From Candidatus Poribacteria bacterium (lineage in GTDB: Bacteria > Poribacteria > WGA-4E > JAJDTR01): a DNA stretch of 64,000 nucleotides. The notes below the pieces were generated by a model. That model had not been told where the DNA came from. It saw only the letters and a program-made list of their open reading frames with translations, and made no database searches. Positions 4,262-54,686 of this stretch are shown one piece after another. A program made the translations under genes and the position numbers. Position 1 is the first letter of the stretch. Every line of letters begins with the position of its first letter. The DNA lies in contig CBDCTK010000002.1 of NCBI GenBank assembly GCA_965222225.1, positions 1,792,001 to 1,856,000 on the forward strand. Reading direction: 5' to 3'.

Positions 4262-6043
4262 TCAGAGAGGCCATACGAGAGGTGTGATGAGTATTGCTGT
4301 ACCGCCGACCAGCACATCTAACGGAAGTCCGATTCGCAGATAGTCACTGAAGCGATAGCCGCCGGGGCCATAAACCATCAAGTTGGTCTGATACCCTAGC
4401 GGTGTGGCAAAACTTGCCGACGCTGCGACCATTGTCACGATAACAAACGGCATGAAATTCACGCCAAGATTATCAGCTGTCGCGATTGCAATCGGGAAAA
4501 CGAGCACAGCCGCTGCAACGTTGGTTAGAGTTTCGGTGAACAACAAAGTGATGACATATACCACAGCCAACACAAGCAGCGGCTTTTGGCCCGCCATCGC
4601 GATGAGAGATTGCGCAATCGCGCCGGCTATTCCAGAGTTTTGCATAGCGTGGCCAATTCCTATCGATGCCGCAATGACTAGCAAGACCTGCAAATTGATG
4701 CTGCGCCTTGCAGTTGCCACCGAGCAGCAACCAGTCAAGAGCATGAGCCCAGCCGCTAGGAGTGCGGCATTCAGCATGAGTTCGGGTTGGATGACCACAA
4801 CTGCAACCATGCCTATCAGAAGCCCCGATGCCATCAAGGCATGGCTATGGCGCCGCGGGTTAGAATCTTCCACTTGGCTCACTAAGAAGAAATCGCGTGA
4901 ATTTCGCTGCTGCGTCCCAAACGATGGGTGTGTTTCCAACAGTAAGGTGTCGCCTGCCCTCAATACGATGTCTCCAATTTTCCCACGGATGCGTTCGCCA
5001 TTTCGAGCGACGGCAATAACCACGGCATTGTAAGTTGAACGAAATTGCCCCTCGCGAATTGTTTGGCTAACGAGCGGACAAGTGTTCGAGACGACGGCTT
5101 CAATAAGGCATCGCTCGGACCTTGGCGTGTCAAGTTTGAAAATCTGATCTGTAGCGGGGGTTAAGCCGGGCATTTTTTGCAAACTGACAACCGATTCGAC
5201 AATCCCAACAAAGATGAGGCGGTCTTTCGCCCGAAGCCGTTCCTGCGGTGAAACAGCAACCATCACTTGACCGTCACGGTCAATTTCCATCAAGTACAGT
5301 CCTTCGAGATGCCGCAATCCCGCTTGTTCAATTGTTTGGCCGACAAGGGAACTACCATCTTCCACAAGCATCTCAACCGTATACTCTCGCGGATCGGCTG
5401 TTCGGCGAAGCACCGGGCGCCTTTCGGGCAATAACCACCGGCTAAATATCACCGTGAATATTGTTCCTATCAACGCGCAGGGTAACCCGACCTTCGTTAT
5501 GTCGAACATCCCGAGGCTCTGTTCTCCCCACTCTACCAGCAAGCCATTGACCACCAAATTGGTGCTTGTGCCAATCAGCGTGCACATACCTCCAAGAATC
5601 GCCGCGTAGCTAAGCGGTATCAGCAGTTTGGACACCGATAAGCGATTCTGTTTCGCCCATTCATCAACCGCTGGTAGGAGTGTCGCAACAACGGGAGTGT
5701 TGTTCAGAAATGCACTGGTGGTTGCGACAGGTAACACGATGCGCAGAAGTGCCGCCGAGAGCGATTTGGGACGTCCTAACAAGTGTCGAACAATCAGATT
5801 AATGACACCCGTCTCACGTAATGCGGCGCTGACGACGAAAAGCACCCCGACCGTAATCATTCCCGGGTTGGCAAACCCTGAAAAGGCTTCGGCAGGCGTG
5901 AGAATCCTTGTTGTCAACAATAGGATTAAGCCGCCAAGTAGGATTGCATCCGGACTGATGCGCGTGAAAATTAACAAATTGAGCACTAATGCAACGACAG
6001 CCAGCGTTATCCAAGCGTCCCAGCCCAATGTTTCCCAGCCCAT
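4262..6043 (-). CDS. SLC13/CitMHS-type permease with TrkA-C (RCK_C) domains
   Basis: SAFLNNTPVV, LIGTSTNL and ATPLGYQTNLMV motifs; start at MGWETL, upstream ORF extension looks non-coding. Confidence 0.9.
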   Translation of the reverse strand: MGWETLGWDAWITLAVVALVLNLLIFTRISPDAILLGGLILLLTTRILTPAEAFSGFANPGMITVGVLFVVSAALRETGVINLIVRHLLGRPKSLSAALLRIVLPVATTSAFLNNTPVVATLLPAVDEWAKQNRLSVSKLLIPLSYAAILGGMCTLIGTSTNLVVNGLLVEWGEQSLGMFDITKVGLPCALIGTIFTVIFSRWLLPERRPVLRRTADPREYTVEMLVEDGSSLVGQTIEQAGLRHLEGLYLMEIDRDGQVMVAVSPQERLRAKDRLIFVGIVESVVSLQKMPGLTPATDQIFKLDTPRSERCLIEAVVSNTCPLVSQTIREGQFRSTYNAVVIAVARNGERIRGKIGDIVLRAGDTLLLETHPSFGTQQRNSRDFFLVSQVEDSNPRRHSHALMASGLLIGMVAVVVIQPELMLNAALLAAGLMLLTGCCSVATARRSINLQVLLVIAASIGIGHAMQNSGIAGAIAQSLIAMAGQKPLLVLAVVYVITLLFTETLTNVAAAVLVFPIAIATADNLGVNFMPFVIVTMVAASASFATPLGYQTNLMVYGPGGYRFSDYLRIGLPLDVLVGGTAILITPLVWPL

Positions 6044-39366: not shown

Positions 39367-40032
39367 TTATGCAATGCTACGAGTCTCTGATTTTTCGCGC
39401 GACTCACATCGCAAATAAGGACACAATTGGTGCTGCAGTTTCTTCCGTGCAAAGAACAGATGCGCTTTAATTGTGCCGACTTGCCGATTCAGCTTCCGCG
39501 CAATTGTTTTCAGCGCAAGTCCCTCGCGATAGTGCAGAACAAAGATCTCGTACTGCATCGGCGATAGTTGCTCTATCGCTTGATGTATTTGCTTCAACAG
39601 TTCTTCGTTTAGGACCATCTTTGACGGTGGTTCTGAGTTGGCATCGGTGAGGTTTGTTGTGATCGAGTCGTCAAACTCCCACATCTCAACGACAATCGGG
39701 CGCATCGTATTTCGGCGCTTGAAATCAATGCAAAGATTAACCGCGATCCGATAGAGCCATGTATAAAACTGAGATGCCTTCCTGAAATTGAACAGCCCTT
39801 GATAGGCCTTCAGAAACACATCTTGGGTGAGATCGAGTGCGTCTTCGTGGTTGTGGACGTTGCGATATACCAATCCATAAATGGATTTCTGGTAGCGAAT
39901 CATCAATTCGTTGAAGACTGACGTCTCCCCGCGTTGAAATCGCTTGACGAGTTGGGTATCATCCGTGGTTGCTTGAGCATATAATGGAAACACCTTTTTA
40001 TCTGAAAGCATTTCGGTTTTCCTTTCGATCAT
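39367..40032 (-). CDS. ECF sigma-70 factor
   Basis: DALDLTQDVFLKAY, FYTWLYRIAVN, GTIKAHLF. Confidence 0.92.
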   Translation of the reverse strand: MIERKTEMLSDKKVFPLYAQATTDDTQLVKRFQRGETSVFNELMIRYQKSIYGLVYRNVHNHEDALDLTQDVFLKAYQGLFNFRKASQFYTWLYRIAVNLCIDFKRRNTMRPIVVEMWEFDDSITTNLTDANSEPPSKMVLNEELLKQIHQAIEQLSPMQYEIFVLHYREGLALKTIARKLNRQVGTIKAHLFFARKKLQHQLCPYLRCESREKSETRSIA

Positions 40033-47925: not shown

Positions 47926-48969
47926 CTATTTGTTGTGCCGTCTACTCGCTAGGAATGAATCAAGTTGCTCAACGGTGTCAAAGATTCTTTCGCACAAGTT
48001 CTCAAAGAATGGACTGCGGGCATGGGAGTATACGGCGTAGACCGGCTTGTTGTAACGAGACGCATAGTTCATCTCGCTTAACACGCCCGGAGAGAGTTTA
48101 TCGGTTGGATAAAGCACAACGACGAAATCGCTCTGATGAATGAATTGAAAATCCCTTGAGATGGTGCGTGTCTTTATCTGCTCGCTAAAACTCGCGTCAA
48201 GATTGCTAATGGTGGTGATTCTGTCTGAAGTTACTAGCTCCGGTTTCACGCTCAGTTCGGCTTCTGCGTCGTGAATTAACTCCATATCTTTTATATCTAG
48301 CGGATCGAACACGATAAAATGCTTGCGCATCTTCGATCCAAACGCATGAATCTTTTTGAGGTGGTCGGTGCTCTCCCGTAGCAGAGTGATTGGATAACTG
48401 AGATACAATTTCTGTTTGTCGGAAAATAAGAGATCGTAAAAGTTCTCAAGATCGTGCCGTCGTGCCACTGTATAGTGAGGTTTGCTGTTGAGGATCGCCA
48501 TCTGCTTAGTTAGGAACTCCTCCTCATCTAGCCAGACGTTAATCTCTTCGCGACGCATACCCGTCCACTGAGGATTCGGCGTCATACGATCTGTGATATC
48601 TGCAAGGTCATCAACCACATTCACAAACACATCTGCCGGAAACTCCCGAATGTCCCGAAAAGATATCCCCTCAATCAATCTACCACGCCAGCGAAAGCAC
48701 GAATGAAGTCCGATAAACGCATGCTCGTATTCGGAGGCGCGATTGGCAATTTCGTGGAACGCAGACCGACGCGCTAAGGAGAGCACGGCAGGATCGGAAT
48801 CGAGTACTTTTTCCGTGAAGCGCACTCCGGATTCGGCAGCGGCACGGTGCATGAAATCACCTACGTTAAAAAACCCGATCCGCACTTTTTTTTCGCGACA
48901 GAGCGCTTCAAAATCCGCCATCAACTCCTTTCTGCCGGAGCAACTGATTCCTGTGCAGATGATATTCAT
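47926..48969 (-). CDS. Archaeal-type adenylate-kinase-like P-loop domain fused to a nucleoside 2-deoxyribosyltransferase-like domain
   Basis: TGISCSGRK N-terminus; YLSYP..FDPL..RDFQFIHQSD..SPGVLSEM.YA...KPV C-terminus. Confidence 0.6.
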   Translation of the reverse strand: MNIICTGISCSGRKELMADFEALCREKKVRIGFFNVGDFMHRAAAESGVRFTEKVLDSDPAVLSLARRSAFHEIANRASEYEHAFIGLHSCFRWRGRLIEGISFRDIREFPADVFVNVVDDLADITDRMTPNPQWTGMRREEINVWLDEEEFLTKQMAILNSKPHYTVARRHDLENFYDLLFSDKQKLYLSYPITLLRESTDHLKKIHAFGSKMRKHFIVFDPLDIKDMELIHDAEAELSVKPELVTSDRITTISNLDASFSEQIKTRTISRDFQFIHQSDFVVVLYPTDKLSPGVLSEMNYASRYNKPVYAVYSHARSPFFENLCERIFDTVEQLDSFLASRRHNK

Positions 48970-49232: not shown

Positions 49233-50363
49233 TCACGCCCCATTGGCTTCGCTGGCTTGAGGCCTGAGCAGAATTAGCGCGACTAATGCGGCAACCGAAG
49301 AGATGGATCCTGCGACGACAAATGCCCCTGAAAGCCCAAAGATATCCGCAACGGCGCCGGATGTCATGGGGCCAAGAAACATCCCGATGGCATACGTGGC
49401 TTGAAAGGCCCCCATCGCCGTTGCACGGTCCTGATCGGGTATCTGCCGAATGCTCAAGCCCATCAGCAAAGGGTACGTCATGCCGCGTCCAAACCCACTG
49501 ATACCTTGGGTGATTGCTAGGAGTGGCAGGTTTGTGACAATGGGAACGACAAACGCCATCCCCGCCATAATGAGAATGCCCACGAAAAGCGCACGATTTT
49601 CGCCTAAACGATCGGCAACGCGATGATTGACCAGTGACGCTAGAGTGTAGGGCAGCAGGGCAACCACACCAATGACGCCGAGTGCCGATTTACTCGCACC
49701 CAATCCATCTGCATACAACGGGACAAAGCCAAATGTCGTTGCCCAGATGACATATTGATTCAGAGCGGAGATTAGCGCTGTAGTGATTACTGTCCGGTGA
49801 ATCATTACCGAGCGAATCTGTCGCACGGTAAGAGATTTTCTAATTGCTCGCGGTTCCCTAATCGGCGCGGTTGAAATAATACCGAAAACCGCCAAAATAG
49901 CACCGACATAGAATGTAGATTCCATTCACCAGATTTCGGCAATCTGTCCTCCTAGACCGATAAAGACCGTTAACGATATGCCGTTGATTGCGCTGACGAC
50001 ACCCATTGCCTTGGGCGTTTCATCCGGCGGAAAGTAACTTGCATACAATACCGTGAATCCAACCCAAGTCGACGCACTGATACCGAACACACCGCGGGCC
50101 AGGACTAGATATGCCGGGTTAGGCGCAAGAGCAAGCCCCAGGCACCCAAGCAAGTTGAAGAAGTGACCTGCGTAAAGGAAAGGCAGGCGCCTCCCCAGAC
50201 GATCCGACCAAATGCCGACCGGAATTCGCAGGAGCATTTGAACGAAACCGTACGCCCCAACAATGACACCCACGGTCGTGAATGAAGCGCCTAGCGATGC
50301 GGCGTAAACAGACAATATAGGTGAGTAGACGTATAGCGCAGCCCAATACAGAAACATCGCCAC
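49233..50363 (-). pseudogene. MFS transporter split by an in-frame TGA (49926-49928)
   Basis: GIWSDRLGRR and ADRLGE MFS motifs; halves in the same frame GGQIAEIW*MESTF. Confidence 0.75.
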
Positions 50364-50653: not shown

Positions 50654-53600
50654 CTACGATTTGTCAACTTCATGTGTGCATACATCCTCGTGGCTATCAA
50701 TCGCTGGCAAACCGACGAACATGCGGCTATCAATATCTGCAAGTGGTTCCACTGACCCCGTTACCGCCGCACGCGCAAAGACAATCCCGGGGCGATTGGC
50801 TTGCATTGCCCGACCGAGCACCGAAGCCTGATCGCCGATAGGGTTATTGCGTTTCACGCTGCGTCCAAGTTCTGCAATTTCACGTTGAACTCTGACTAGG
50901 GCTTCCCAGTGGCGGTGTGCAACTGCACGAAGATCTTCCGGTCTCAGTCCCTCCCGATAACTGCGCCGGACATTGGGCGGAGTCGGAAGACCGTATTTCG
51001 TACTGTTCCATCGCACAACCATCTGGGAGAATGATTCGAGTCTGCCCTGTGCAAGGCTTTTCACTGCGAGCAATTGTGGACCCACGTCATTGTCGCTGAA
51101 GTCCTTTCGAGTTGCGAGTTGCTCGTTCATTTCCTCGGTGTATGCCTCCCACGCCACTTCATCGTGATCCGGAGGCAAAGGCTCTCTTTCCAAGCTTTCA
51201 CCAATGAATGGACTAATTGACGCGCCTGATTCCTTCGCTAGGTCAAAACCGCGCTTCATCAATTCCTGAATGGTACAGAGCGTTTTCGTGGCGCCGTCAC
51301 GTTCCAAGACAATCTGCAGTGCCCATCCGAGCGTATTTCGCGTAATAAATCCTTCAGGTGCGTCCACGTCAACGCCCGTTAGCCTTGAGATTTCCGCGCG
51401 TCCATCTGCGGTCAGGCTCAGATTTGCAAGCCCCCACATCGGATCCAGTGCCGGTATAAGGGCTTCAAGCAATCCAGGATCGCGATTAAGTCTTGGACGG
51501 AGTCCGCGTGTAGTCGAAAATATCGGAAGCACGGAGTCTAGCGCTCCCGGGTCGCGTTCAAGATGCGAAACGAGGGTAAGTTTTTCTCGCGCCTCGGTTT
51601 GTGCAGCCTCGGTAATTGGCAGAATTACTGCGGCTTGATCTCCGTCAAAATCCACATTCATAGGCCTACAGACAACGGGTGGGATATGGATGGCATTGTC
51701 CTGGCGCCGTACCGGTCGAAATGCGAGAAACTGGGTTGGTGTTATAGCGGGAGCGCGATACAGAATCACCCACGAGCGGTTCATGATGGTATCAAGTGCT
51801 TGTGATGCATCTTTGGTTCGTTTACTGACTTCCACAGAGTTTTGAATCTCTCGTGTCACTATTGGTCCGAAAAGCTTCCATGCCATCTCTTCAGGAATTC
51901 CAATTTGATCGTGCTGTAGGCGAATATCCGGGACAATCACCCCCCGTCCGCTAAAAACTGACCGCGTGTTGAAGGCGAGATGACGGTGGGTAACGAGCAC
52001 GTCAAAATATTCTCGAACGCAAGATTCTAGCTGATAAAGCGTCTGACGAATGAGACTCTCGGGCGCATTGTTAGCAAGCATTCGATTTGCTCGATCGTTG
52101 ACCGTAACAAGGTTCTCGTAAGCAGTGGAAATGTTGGTATTTACGATTCTCGTCTCGTCAATCCACCATGCATTGTTGTATTCGCGCGGACTTGATGCGG
52201 TTCCGAAAAAGTCGCCATCTTCAGGGACGCCCACCTCGTCGATTGTATGCTGGCGCAGCCAAGGATGAGGAATTGGACGAGCTAGTTTGAGCGATTCGCC
52301 ATCAGGCGGCTTGAGACGGAATTTCATCGTCGGATAGCTCCTAGTCCCATCTCCCGATCCTAATGGGTGCGAGCCCTCAAGTTCGGTGCGAATGCCAGCG
52401 AAGGCAAGACGCTTCATCAGATTGACAAACCGCGGGGCAAAGCCAGCATGTTGTTCAACTTCTCCACGGGCGACACGATCCGCGAGTGTATTTATATCTA
52501 CCCAGTCTGTAGAGCAAGTATGGTAACGTTCATAAAGATTGTTGAAAACAGCAAGATTGCGCAAGACACTATACTCGATGTTACCTAACCCCTGGCCGTA
52601 AGTCAGTCCCTCACGAGCGGGCCTAATTTTCTCCCGCGCAATGTGGCGTACACGCCCCCAATACACCCAACCAACCGTGCTAGGGCGCTCGAGTCTTTTC
52701 CCATTCTTACCGAGTGTGAGGTATTCCATGCCATTCTCGGGCAGTCTCGCACGTTTCAGACGCTTGCTTAACTCTTCAATGCTTGGGGCACCAAAGGAGG
52801 GTACGATTATTGGTTCTCCTTCAACTTTCGCGACGCGGCTCATGATTGCTTCCCTTAATTGTCCAACGTTCATCCGTGTCTGCACGCCAAACGAGTTGTA
52901 AACAATTTCAACCGGAGTTCCCTCAGTGAGATGTGGCATTTCATCGTCCGGCACAATGCGGGAAATGCAGCCTTTCGAGCCGTGACGGTTCGCAAATGCA
53001 TCGCCGGGTTCAACAGGATAGGGGTAACTGAAACGATTCGCACACGACTCGCTAATGACGATTGCATCCTCGAAAGTATCAACTCCCCACGGTACAAAAG
53101 CCGTCAGTACATTTCGTCCGCACCAAAATCTGTCGGCATCAAAACTATTCTCGGTCTGAACAAGTGCGGGTTCGGGGTCAGGCGGAACGTAGAATTGACG
53201 CTGCATGCCCAGCCCCATTTGCTGATGGTTTGGGTCGTTGTGCTCGATAAACGGCACAAGCGAAGCACTGAGTCCGAGTCCGGCTTCCGGCCGATTATCG
53301 ACGACGATTAGCTTGCCATCGCGAATCTCTGCTCCAACTGCGATGCTCAAAATCTTACCAACACTTGGTCCCTCAGGTGTTTCATATGGACACACGCGAC
53401 TAAAATAACTCGGATTCATGACACGATTTTGCCATTCAACACGGATGCGGCGAAGATTGGTTTGTCGATCAAGCCAGTTGAAACTCTGAAGGCGCCGGAT
53501 GGATGGTTGACTCGCGAAGAATTCGAGAACCCATGTGTGGAGCGAAAACCAAGATTTAACGAGCGAGGCATCCCATGAAAAATCGGGAGGAGTGCTTCCT

Positions 53601-53935
53601 AGGCGCTCCGCGATGAAATCGCACAGTTGCTCGCCGACACATTTTATCTCGGCGGCGGCGAGATCTTCATTTTGAGCGATTGGCAGGACGATTCGCTCCT
53701 TACCATCAATATTGAATACCCCGTCATCATCTGGCTGTGGAATGTCGGTATACGATTCGTCTAGGTTGCCCGAACCGAATCCAAATGCAATCTCAATGCG
53801 ACAAGTATACGTACTTGTTGATTCAACGTGATAGCCAGCCAGCGGCATACGCACCGCGAGAAGTTCTGGTAGCCGATTGTTGGTGAATCGGTTAAACGAT
53901 TCTTTGTGCCAAAAAGCGGTAATATTGCGGGACAT
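50654..53935 (-). CDS. Miniature fused beta-beta' RNA polymerase-like protein
   Basis: Collinear RpoB motifs (GVFNIDGKER, CPYETPEG, VPFIEHND..MQRQ, FEDAIVISE, RHGSKG, RMNVGQ, TVGWVY) then RpoC motifs (LARPIPHPW, clamp helices, SGRGVI, YRAP, NVDFDGD, SYREGL); AGGAGA RBS. Confidence 0.9.
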   Translation of the reverse strand: MSRNITAFWHKESFNRFTNNRLPELLAVRMPLAGYHVESTSTYTCRIEIAFGFGSGNLDESYTDIPQPDDDGVFNIDGKERIVLPIAQNEDLAAAEIKCVGEQLCDFIAERLGSTPPDFSWDASLVKSWFSLHTWVLEFFASQPSIRRLQSFNWLDRQTNLRRIRVEWQNRVMNPSYFSRVCPYETPEGPSVGKILSIAVGAEIRDGKLIVVDNRPEAGLGLSASLVPFIEHNDPNHQQMGLGMQRQFYVPPDPEPALVQTENSFDADRFWCGRNVLTAFVPWGVDTFEDAIVISESCANRFSYPYPVEPGDAFANRHGSKGCISRIVPDDEMPHLTEGTPVEIVYNSFGVQTRMNVGQLREAIMSRVAKVEGEPIIVPSFGAPSIEELSKRLKRARLPENGMEYLTLGKNGKRLERPSTVGWVYWGRVRHIAREKIRPAREGLTYGQGLGNIEYSVLRNLAVFNNLYERYHTCSTDWVDINTLADRVARGEVEQHAGFAPRFVNLMKRLAFAGIRTELEGSHPLGSGDGTRSYPTMKFRLKPPDGESLKLARPIPHPWLRQHTIDEVGVPEDGDFFGTASSPREYNNAWWIDETRIVNTNISTAYENLVTVNDRANRMLANNAPESLIRQTLYQLESCVREYFDVLVTHRHLAFNTRSVFSGRGVIVPDIRLQHDQIGIPEEMAWKLFGPIVTREIQNSVEVSKRTKDASQALDTIMNRSWVILYRAPAITPTQFLAFRPVRRQDNAIHIPPVVCRPMNVDFDGDQAAVILPITEAAQTEAREKLTLVSHLERDPGALDSVLPIFSTTRGLRPRLNRDPGLLEALIPALDPMWGLANLSLTADGRAEISRLTGVDVDAPEGFITRNTLGWALQIVLERDGATKTLCTIQELMKRGFDLAKESGASISPFIGESLEREPLPPDHDEVAWEAYTEEMNEQLATRKDFSDNDVGPQLLAVKSLAQGRLESFSQMVVRWNSTKYGLPTPPNVRRSYREGLRPEDLRAVAHRHWEALVRVQREIAELGRSVKRNNPIGDQASVLGRAMQANRPGIVFARAAVTGSVEPLADIDSRMFVGLPAIDSHEDVCTHEVDKS

Positions 53936-54019: not shown

Positions 54020-54625
54020 TCACCATTCATGCCATTCAATGCCAAGTTCCTTCCATTCGCGTGCGAGACGTTTCAGTGTATAGTGCAAACGCGATTTGAC
54101 TGTGCCTATTGGGACACCGAGTTCATCAGCGACCTGCCGAATGTCCATTTCTGCACCGTAGACGAGGTGAAGAACCTCTCGCTTCTCATCGGGCAAGTCG
54201 TCTACAAGTTCCCATAGGAATTCGGACTGTTCGGCTTGTTCAAGCATCACTTGAGGGTCTGGCGATGCGCTGTCGATTAACCAGGTTGGCATCTGTGTAA
54301 GAGCGCCATCTTCGTCATCATAGGGCTCTTCGGGAACTTCAAGTGGCTGCTGTCTGCGTCGATGCACCGTTCGAAGGTGATTAAGGGCGAGATTGGTCGC
54401 AATGCGGTAAAGCCATGACTTCAATTCGCCGCGTCCATCCCACTGTGCCGCACATGTCCATACCCGAAGGAAAACCTCTTGGACCAAATCTTCAGTGGCA
54501 CCTTCGTCTCGGACAGTACGCAGGATGTGCTTGTAGAGGACGTGCCTGTAGCGCTCAAAAAGGATTTCAAACGCAATGGTATTTCGCCCGCGAATCTGCT
54601 CAATGAGTTCCCGATCAGATTGCAT
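54020..54625 (-). CDS. ECF sigma-70 factor upstream of the mini-RNAP gene
   Basis: EDLVQEVFLRVW, SWLYRIATN, GTVKSRLH. Confidence 0.93.
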   Translation of the reverse strand: MQSDRELIEQIRGRNTIAFEILFERYRHVLYKHILRTVRDEGATEDLVQEVFLRVWTCAAQWDGRGELKSWLYRIATNLALNHLRTVHRRRQQPLEVPEEPYDDEDGALTQMPTWLIDSASPDPQVMLEQAEQSEFLWELVDDLPDEKREVLHLVYGAEMDIRQVADELGVPIGTVKSRLHYTLKRLAREWKELGIEWHEW

Positions 54626-54658
54626 CGACAGAATCCTTTCGTCGGGTTTCCACTGTGG

Positions 54659-54686
54659 ATGACACCGCAGGATGGACGACGGTTCA
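54659..54686 (-). promoter_or_regulatory. Candidate ECF-type autoregulatory promoter
   Basis: TGAACC-N16-TGTCAT (AAC / GTC pattern) just upstream of the sigma ATG. Confidence 0.45.

Follow-up and report, generated by a model that had tools for sequence, protein, structure and literature searches.

A clamp-helix hairpin in a pruned single-chain RNA polymerase encoded behind its own ECF sigma factor in a Poribacteria genome

How would a sigma factor be held by an RNA polymerase (RNAP) whose two large subunits have been cut down and fused into one chain? The question is raised by a stretch of 64,000 nucleotides (nt) from the genome of a Candidatus Poribacteria bacterium (GenBank assembly GCA_965222225.1, contig CBDCTK010000002.1, positions 1,792,001 to 1,856,000 of the forward strand; hereafter the window, in whose numbering all positions are given), which carries a gene for a sigma factor of the extracytoplasmic function (ECF) type followed by a gene for a very small RNAP, here called the mini-RNAP (Table 1). 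The segment of interest is 45 amino acids (aa) long and lies within the polymerase. We read it as the clamp-helix hairpin of a beta-beta' RNAP that has been heavily pruned, is fused into one chain and is encoded in a two-gene operon behind its own ECF sigma; the hairpin would serve as the dock for region 2.2 of that sigma. Docking of the sigma on this hairpin is the simplest reading of the locus, and one that we hold to be probable without being assured.

A first-pass annotation of the window had described a 35-residue peptide (aa 606-640 of the polymerase, nt 52016-52120, minus strand) as a gap-free match to the beta' coiled coil, and four comparisons bear this out. With HMMER, the peptide aligns without gaps to the Thermus beta' clamp helices, scoring 11 bits (independent E-value 2.1) when taken alone and lying collinear with a 62-bit beta' domain. 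BLASTP places the 45-aa hairpin on residues 269-308 of beta' from Escherichia coli K-12 (NC_000913), with 11 of 40 residues identical (28%), 19 of 40 positive and no gaps, at an E-value of 3e-4 for this single comparison. When a hidden Markov model (HMM) of the mini-RNAP family is aligned to beta' of E. coli and of the host, the hairpin falls inside domains of 143-147 bits and its posterior is high, the beta' 269-309 segment being gap-free. Finally, a 45-column HMM of the hairpin only, searched against all 6470 open reading frames (ORFs) of at least 120 aa in the window's genome, finds the clamp helices of the host's own beta' as its top non-self match (E-value 0.0061, 40 aa without gaps; runner-up 0.14). 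The hairpin stands N-terminal to the beta' double-psi barrel and its Asp loop, collinear with beta' 260-310.

The rest of the 1093-aa chain matches beta and beta' with E-values of 1e-17 to 1e-38 in Pfam and PDB searches. The Pfam domains are Rpb2_3 (aa 159-204), Rpb2_6 (308-440) and Rpb1_2 (711-784), and the PDB sequence matches are to beta chains over aa 160-443 (E-value 2.8e-38) and to beta' chains over aa 656-791 (about 3e-18). It is not a full-length RpoB or RpoC: the flap has no counterpart, the NCBIfam rpoB, rpoC and rpoBC models all score far under their cut-offs (the highest 162.5 bits against an rpoB cut-off of 801), and none of the NCBIfam models scored against its cut-off claims the protein for a curated family. 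Its nearest models are those of bacterial beta and beta', with 162 bits for TIGR02013 as against 92-110 bits for archaeal models. The host genome (5.7 Mb in two contigs) has ordinary rpoB and rpoC genes, in frames of 1439 and 1434 aa, and a single copy of the mini-RNAP. Judged by its residues, the fusion has both hallmarks of the two-barrel RNAP core, the three-Asp loop and the NRHG-KG motif of beta. Across an alignment of 86 relatives D764, G765 and D766 of the loop are invariant and D762 nearly so, while in the beta motif R317 and G319 are invariant and N316, H318, K321 and G322 nearly so. Because these catalytic residues are invariant, the mini-RNAP is probably an active enzyme. The polymerase stretch that corresponds to the rifampicin region of E. 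coli beta (497-580) has N160 (53456-53458, minus strand) as the equivalent of E. coli H526; the family consensus here is T-H-x-R-R, and the window protein and its closest relative have T-N-L-R-R.

Which parts of the two subunits were kept and which were lost was mapped by aligning the family HMM to E. coli beta and beta'. The aligned beta residues are 497-580, 652-707, 787-823, 1054-1146 and 1177-1342, which reaches the C-terminus, and the flap is missing as a block (824-1053). The aligned beta' residues are 106-640, with large gaps, and then 716-795, the F-loop and the start of the bridge helix; residues 1-105, most of 131-266, about 314-343 (the rudder stretch) and everything past 795 are without a counterpart. 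We take the first 105 residues of beta' to be the location of the Zn domain and the zipper. The trigger loop is presumably absent as well, because only about 120 residues come after the start of the bridge helix. The beta C-terminal helix, in contrast to the flap tip, is retained together with the clamp helices; these three are known sigma anchors in ECF holoenzymes (described in PMC6411747 and PMC6648896), and domain 4 of the ECF sigma-H uses the beta C-terminal helix as its second anchor (PMC6411747). The mapping thus supports the view that the clamp helices were kept in an enzyme that shed most other sigma- and DNA-handling modules, and the hairpin would be the only classical sigma anchor retained besides the beta C-terminal helix.

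Some further features of the chain were seen in the same alignments. Just N-terminal of the hairpin, aa 561-603 (52127-52255, minus strand) form a lineage-specific insert with a conservation of 0.18, found in the closest Poribacteria relatives only, and a second, small insert occupies aa 523-535. A lid-like element was considered at aa 591-604, by comparison with the Thermus lid region, and was not counted: it has hardly any identities and lies within the lineage-specific insert. The sequence PHPW may, tentatively, be the HIW motif of beta', which the family HMM aligns at low posterior only.

If the hairpin is a dock for sigma, what has become of its contact face? The residues Y269, R275, E295 and A302 of E. 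coli beta' correspond to Y606, V612, T632 and C639 of the window protein, and counts below are for 64 full-length relatives in E. coli numbering. The substitution of V, T and C for R275, E295 and A302, which the first-pass annotation had reported, is confirmed, so that the window hairpin has none of these three sigma70-binding determinants; E. coli, Thermus and the host's own beta' all have R, E and A at these positions. The substitutions are fixed across the family rather than private to the window gene, with A or V at position 275 and A or T at position 295 in 60 of the 64 relatives each. The scaffold is retained: N276, P288 in the turn and L299 are present in 64 of 64, and position 269 is Y in 52 and F in 6. 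In the cryo-electron microscopy structure of the sigma32 open promoter complex, beta' R275, R278, R281, L282, L285, I291, E295 and M298 contact sigma32 D77, E81, I84 and M87 (as reported in PMC10216364). Four of these eight positions are kept in kind by the family, namely R278 (R in 53, K in 8), R281 (R in 56), L282 (as M, L or I) and I291 (as L in 60), and the other four are replaced by conserved residues of the family's own: R275 by A or V, L285 by N or S, E295 by A or T and M298 by Q. The hairpin would thus have kept its scaffold and half of its contact face, the other half having been replaced family-wide. By helical periodicity, positions 275 and 302 would lie side by side at the base of the hairpin, and most members seem to have shifted the arginine from the first helix to the second, with neither helix carrying it in the window lineage (V, T, C).

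These substitutions allow two very different readings. One is that they have no functional meaning, the similarity to the clamp helices being due to chance or the three changes to neutral drift. The low score of the hairpin by itself against single sequences and its limited identity to E. coli could be read in this way, but the match is collinear, gap-free and the best non-self match in the genome, and the replaced positions are themselves conserved in the family, which makes this explanation highly improbable. The other is that the interface is private and co-evolved, as the first-pass annotation had proposed: the hairpin would admit its partner ECF only, the ECF would have abandoned the host core, and the two would form an orthogonal transcription system. 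It gains from the fact that all three E. coli determinants differ from those of the host beta' in the same cell and that half of the eight contact positions are replaced throughout the family; the single changes R275Q, E295K and A302D impair formation of the sigma70 holoenzyme, according to work cited in PMC8321222. Beyond the observed homology, residue changes, gene linkage and promoter, we infer that the altered face changes partner preference.

The sigma gene upstream of the polymerase encodes an ECF (group 4) protein with sigma2 and sigma4 as its only domains, scoring 108.3 bits with TIGR02937 (cut-off 42.9). The protein is a member of a distinct clade, whose own profile gives it 328 bits and gives at most 134 bits to 21 other matches in the genome (107 bits to the ordinary ECF at 39367-40032). 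Across 69 partner sigmas, region 2.2 reads AAEDLVQEVFLRVW. The equivalents of the sigma32 contact residues are canonical, with D46 in 69 of 69, E50 in 64 (and D in the other 5), L53 in 65 and W56 in 69, and since Q49 is also present in all 69 the core-binding pattern D-L-x-Q-E is intact. The first-pass annotation had pointed to ATED in place of the usual DAED in this region (aa 43-46, nt 54488-54499, minus strand), a claim that survives in part. Loss of the acidic lead residue is a property of the family: at position 43, the first of the usual D/E-A-x-D, 64 of the 69 partner sigmas have A, V, T or I and 1 of the 61 tabulated has D, whereas 11 of the genome's 16 other sigma-70-family ORFs have D here and three distinct solved ECFs have D, E and D. 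The T of ATED, in contrast, was rejected as a hallmark, T44 occurring in 3 of 69 and amounting to lineage noise. The family-wide loss of an acidic residue in the sigma parallels the loss of R275 in the hairpin. It speaks for a private interface, although contact of sigma position 43 with 275 or 302 is suggested by helix periodicity alone, and the four canonical contact residues of the sigma are unchanged. Domain 4 has an ordinary ECF pattern in spite of the flap-less polymerase, which also counts against a private interface. Two parts of the sigma are family-specific: a linker with an acidic run (D/E) followed by P-x-W-[ML]-I-D (aa 99-118, 54272-54331, minus strand), and an acidic C-terminal tail with W191 and W198 (aa 191-201, 54023-54055, minus strand). 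This linker and tail might make contacts in place of those lost with the flap tip.

Sigma and polymerase occur together almost without fail. Among 72 related loci from seven phylum-level groups, the sigma lies upstream on the same strand in 71, in addition to the window, and the sole miss has just 52 bp of upstream sequence. In the 63 loci whose polymerase is full-length, the two genes are at most 400 nt apart in 61 and overlap in 18 (17 by 1-16 nt, one at -251). They are also the only conserved genes of the neighbourhood, the next real gene family appearing in 12 of 73 loci; a cognate anti-sigma gene, which is usual though not universal beside ECFs, is not among the conserved neighbours. Co-occurrence is given here as counts and not as statistical tests, since genomes that are related do not make independent samples. 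Of 176 genomes from the window's phylum, 31 have the polymerase, recognized by its unique N-terminus, and all 31 also have the sigma clade. The only other genome of the phylum with this sigma has it interrupted by two in-frame stops, and a polymerase is absent within 10 kb (locus L093, G056:C1, 7389-7934), one case of the module decaying as a unit; that the sigma is a pseudogene where the polymerase is absent also fits a private interface. Of 169 genomes in a class of Chloroflexota, 12 have the sigma and 11 the polymerase, the N-terminus of the twelfth polymerase being cut by a contig end right after the sigma; no genome of the class has one partner alone, and without genome G293, which is flagged as unpublished, the count is 11 of 168. 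Pairwise identities of sigma and polymerase are correlated with r = 0.92 over 1830 pairs (0.57 among distant pairs), and their trees are largely congruent, with 20 of 34 well-supported splits of the sigma tree and 21 of 30 of the polymerase tree shared. Together, these counts support a strictly linked, co-diverging pair that behaves as one unit. As a weak hint of expression, contigs from RNA libraries (four runs, two studies) fall on both genes at low depth and three of them span the sigma/polymerase junction, with DNA carry-over possible and no single transcript shown.

Upstream of the sigma gene, 67 of 69 loci have a three-block motif composed of GAAC, 15-16 nt, G-x-GTC and a block of AGT-purine-G-A; the two exceptions have a variant of it. 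The spacer is 16 nt in 64 of the 67 sites, and the combination of a GAAC-type -35, a GTC-type -10 and a rigid spacer is what an autoregulated ECF promoter is expected to have, so the sigma-polymerase pair looks autoregulated. A two-protein holoenzyme of sigma and mini-RNAP would then initiate at ECF-type promoters, of which the sole recognizable one fronts the operon itself. The motif, with an upstream T-tract that accompanies it, is conserved over the seven phylum-level groups. The third block, AGTGGA in the window, comes 6-8 nt after GTC and persists even where a separate Shine-Dalgarno sequence comes next; its role may be that of a start-site mark or of an element at the beginning of the transcript.

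Several results weigh against docking of the sigma on the mini-RNAP. Region 2.2 and domain 4 of the sigma look fully canonical, and the sigma could therefore work with the host core. The geometry of the promoter is that which host core and an ECF would read. No second full site was found in the 5.7-Mb genome or within 6 kb in the 72 loci, leaving no recognizable target beyond the pair's own operon (the -35/-10 part alone occurs at 26 sites in the genome, about 21 being expected). The hairpin is moderately conserved, its mean of 0.53 lying at the 30th percentile of 45-aa windows as compared with 0.68-0.72 in the catalytic barrels. R278 and R281, two of the kept contact residues, are NusG-binding residues as well (PMC12364105), and the hairpin might for this reason have another partner. 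Finally, mutual information with average product correction over 61 sigma/polymerase pairs gave a mean z of about 0 and a maximum of 4.9 for the block of sigma2 against hairpin; the top pairs are indel or lineage columns, and a cross-tabulation shows that variation at 275, 295 and 302 follows phylogeny with region 2.2 constant. This test is underpowered, and covariation is therefore no evidence either way.

The canonical sigma regions and promoter geometry, the moderate conservation of the hairpin and the NusG-binding residues in it could mean that the ECF acts with the host core only, as a switch for the operon, and that the mini-RNAP works free of sigma, with the hairpin serving a NusG-like partner or acting as a scaffold. 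The mini-RNAP has no flap tip, which is where sigma domain 4 is mainly anchored; this would fit, as would single-chain relatives such as YonO, for which no sigma is known in the published description (PMC5467207). Three observations argue the other way. First, ECFs usually pair with anti-sigmas, and not in tight, often overlapping two-gene operons with one target over seven phylum-level groups. Second, the family varies at the NusG residue R270 (R in 19, A in 12, Q in 10 and E in 9 of 64). Third, it is hard to see, without a sigma, why an enzyme that shed nearly all its accessory elements should have kept the hairpin as well as the beta C-terminal helix. We therefore regard action with the host core only as quite unlikely, and docking of the sigma on the hairpin as the better account of the locus. 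A fully private interface is also doubtful: family-wide change of the three determinants, strict linkage to the sigma and loss of its acidic residue are in favor, and the canonical sigma contacts, the want of a covariation signal and the noise at T44 speak against it. In addition, a promoter that depends on the sigma and drives the sigma needs a kick-off, which would be provided most simply by host core with the sigma. The broadest form of the proposal, a self-contained, sigma-dependent orthogonal holoenzyme of 1093-aa enzyme and 201-aa ECF sigma, in which a re-made clamp-helix face (its arginine shifted to the second helix or dropped, with loss of the matching acidic residue from the sigma) insulates the enzyme from about 20 other host sigmas and the host core is insulated in turn from this sigma, is possible, though we consider it on balance unlikely.

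Table 1. Features of the sigma/mini-RNAP locus in the window. Protein positions are those of the encoded product; family counts are for 64 full-length relatives.
Feature	Position	Strand	Basis
Mini-RNAP gene, 1093-aa single-chain beta-beta' fusion	50654..53935	-	ORF; Pfam and PDB sequence matches
Beta-derived part, about aa 132-522, without flap	52370..53542	-	Family HMM against E. coli beta
Beta'-derived part, about aa 545-1078	50702..52303	-	Family HMM against E. coli beta'
Clamp-helix (coiled-coil) hairpin, aa 604-648, equivalent to E. coli beta' 267-311	51992..52126	-	HMMER, family HMM, hairpin HMM, BLASTP
V612, equivalent to E. coli beta' R275	52100..52102	-	Family A 32, V 28 of 64
T632, equivalent to E. 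coli beta' E295	52040..52042	-	Family A 36, T 24 of 64
C639, equivalent to E. coli beta' A302	52019..52021	-	Family R 36, C 12, A 7 of 64
NVDFDGDQ, catalytic Mg-binding loop of beta' barrel	51635..51658	-	Sequence
NRHGSKG, conserved beta barrel motif	52970..52990	-	Sequence
ECF-type sigma factor, 201 aa, 84 nt upstream of polymerase	54020..54625	-	Pfam Sigma70_r2, r4, ECF; TIGR02937
Sigma region 2.2, ATEDLVQEVFLRVW, aa 43-56	54458..54499	-	Sequence
ECF-type promoter GAAC-N15-GGTGTC-N6-AGTGGA, upstream of sigma gene	54649..54685	-	Motif conserved across loci

Compared with the canonical interface of region 2.2 and clamp helices (E. coli beta' 260-309; sigma32, sigmaE and sigmaH holoenzymes), the mini-RNAP hairpin occupies the same place in the chain without gaps. 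It keeps Y269, N276, R278, R281, P288 and L299, and its partner sigma keeps D-x-x-Q-E-x-x-L-x-x-W; it differs in the replacement of R275, L285, E295 and M298, in having mostly R for A302, and in being part of a single 1093-aa chain. Other pruned or fused polymerases share some of these features. YonO of the Bacillus prophage SPbeta, compared here by its description, is likewise a single chain, of about 100 kDa, that is related to multisubunit RNAP and has no trigger-loop homology, but it is described as having few catalytic residues in common with cellular RNAP and no known sigma partner (PMC5467207), whereas the mini-RNAP is chromosomal, paired with an ECF sigma and strongly matched to beta and beta'. 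Orf6 of the yeast killer plasmid pGKL2, again compared by description, is a 982-aa Rpb2::Rpb1 fusion with the same order of halves, a similar size and about half of each subunit gone; unlike the mini-RNAP, it comes from a eukaryotic plasmid and has no sigma in that account (PMC2919709). Natural rpoB-rpoC fusions (NF007172 and NF011417, about 2840-2890 aa) also have beta and then beta' in one chain, but the mini-RNAP, which the host has in addition to normal rpoB and rpoC, is pruned and scores 148-157 bits with these models (cut-offs 4632-5372).

The family itself numbers about 140 representatives (at 50% identity) above an E-value of 1e-62 and 425 at or below 1e-30, and the ESM Atlas holds two clusters of it, with 135 and 73 members. 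Hosts of the module include sponge-symbiont Poribacteria, Chloroflexota, Planctomycetota and others. Where relatives are named at all, the name is mostly "hypothetical protein", an exception being P0083, which JGI named for its Rpb1 and Rpb2 domains. Our literature searches found no publication on a sigma-paired mini-RNAP family, and the main text and one supplement of the ECF classification paper PMC7826278 do not mention Rpb1, Rpb2, RpoB or RpoC. A link to defence or to phage was not apparent: PADLOC reported 0 families, PHROGs gave generic RNAP and sigma families only, and none of 13 matches on viral contigs is a full-length relative. These phage contigs (L080-L092) have tblastn matches that run from the C-terminal part of beta into the beta' barrel (query aa about 287-786), and other ESM Atlas clusters combine Rpb2_6 and Rpb1_2 in one chain of 1221-1787 aa. 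Fused or adjacent mini polymerases thus seem to be a wider, largely unnamed group.

To our knowledge, all bacterial sigma factors studied so far act on the five-subunit core. If the sigma does dock on the mini-RNAP, the pair would be the smallest sigma-dependent RNA polymerase, at 1093 residues and its own ECF sigma, and it would reveal which parts of a 400-kDa machine are dispensable for promoter-specific initiation, namely the flap, the first 105 residues of beta', the rudder stretch and the trigger-loop region. The hairpin would also serve as a natural experiment on which of the clamp-helix residues determine sigma specificity and, if the interface should prove to be insulated, the locus would offer a ready-made orthogonal transcription system of about 4 kb.

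Downstream of the polymerase, the neighbourhood is less regular. The next gene, for a transporter of the major facilitator superfamily, is split into halves of 145 and 230 aa (ORFs 49926-50363 and 49233-49925, minus strand) by an in-frame TGA followed by ATG (49926-49928, minus strand), and may be a pseudogene or a split into two genes. Farther downstream lies a gene for a 347-aa protein (47926-48969, minus strand), and after this come genes for a RimK-type ATP-grasp protein and a glycosyltransferase; in other phyla, the module has none of these last three as a conserved neighbour. The 347-aa protein has sub-threshold hints of nucleoside 2-deoxyribosyltransferase-like and P-loop kinase-like domains.

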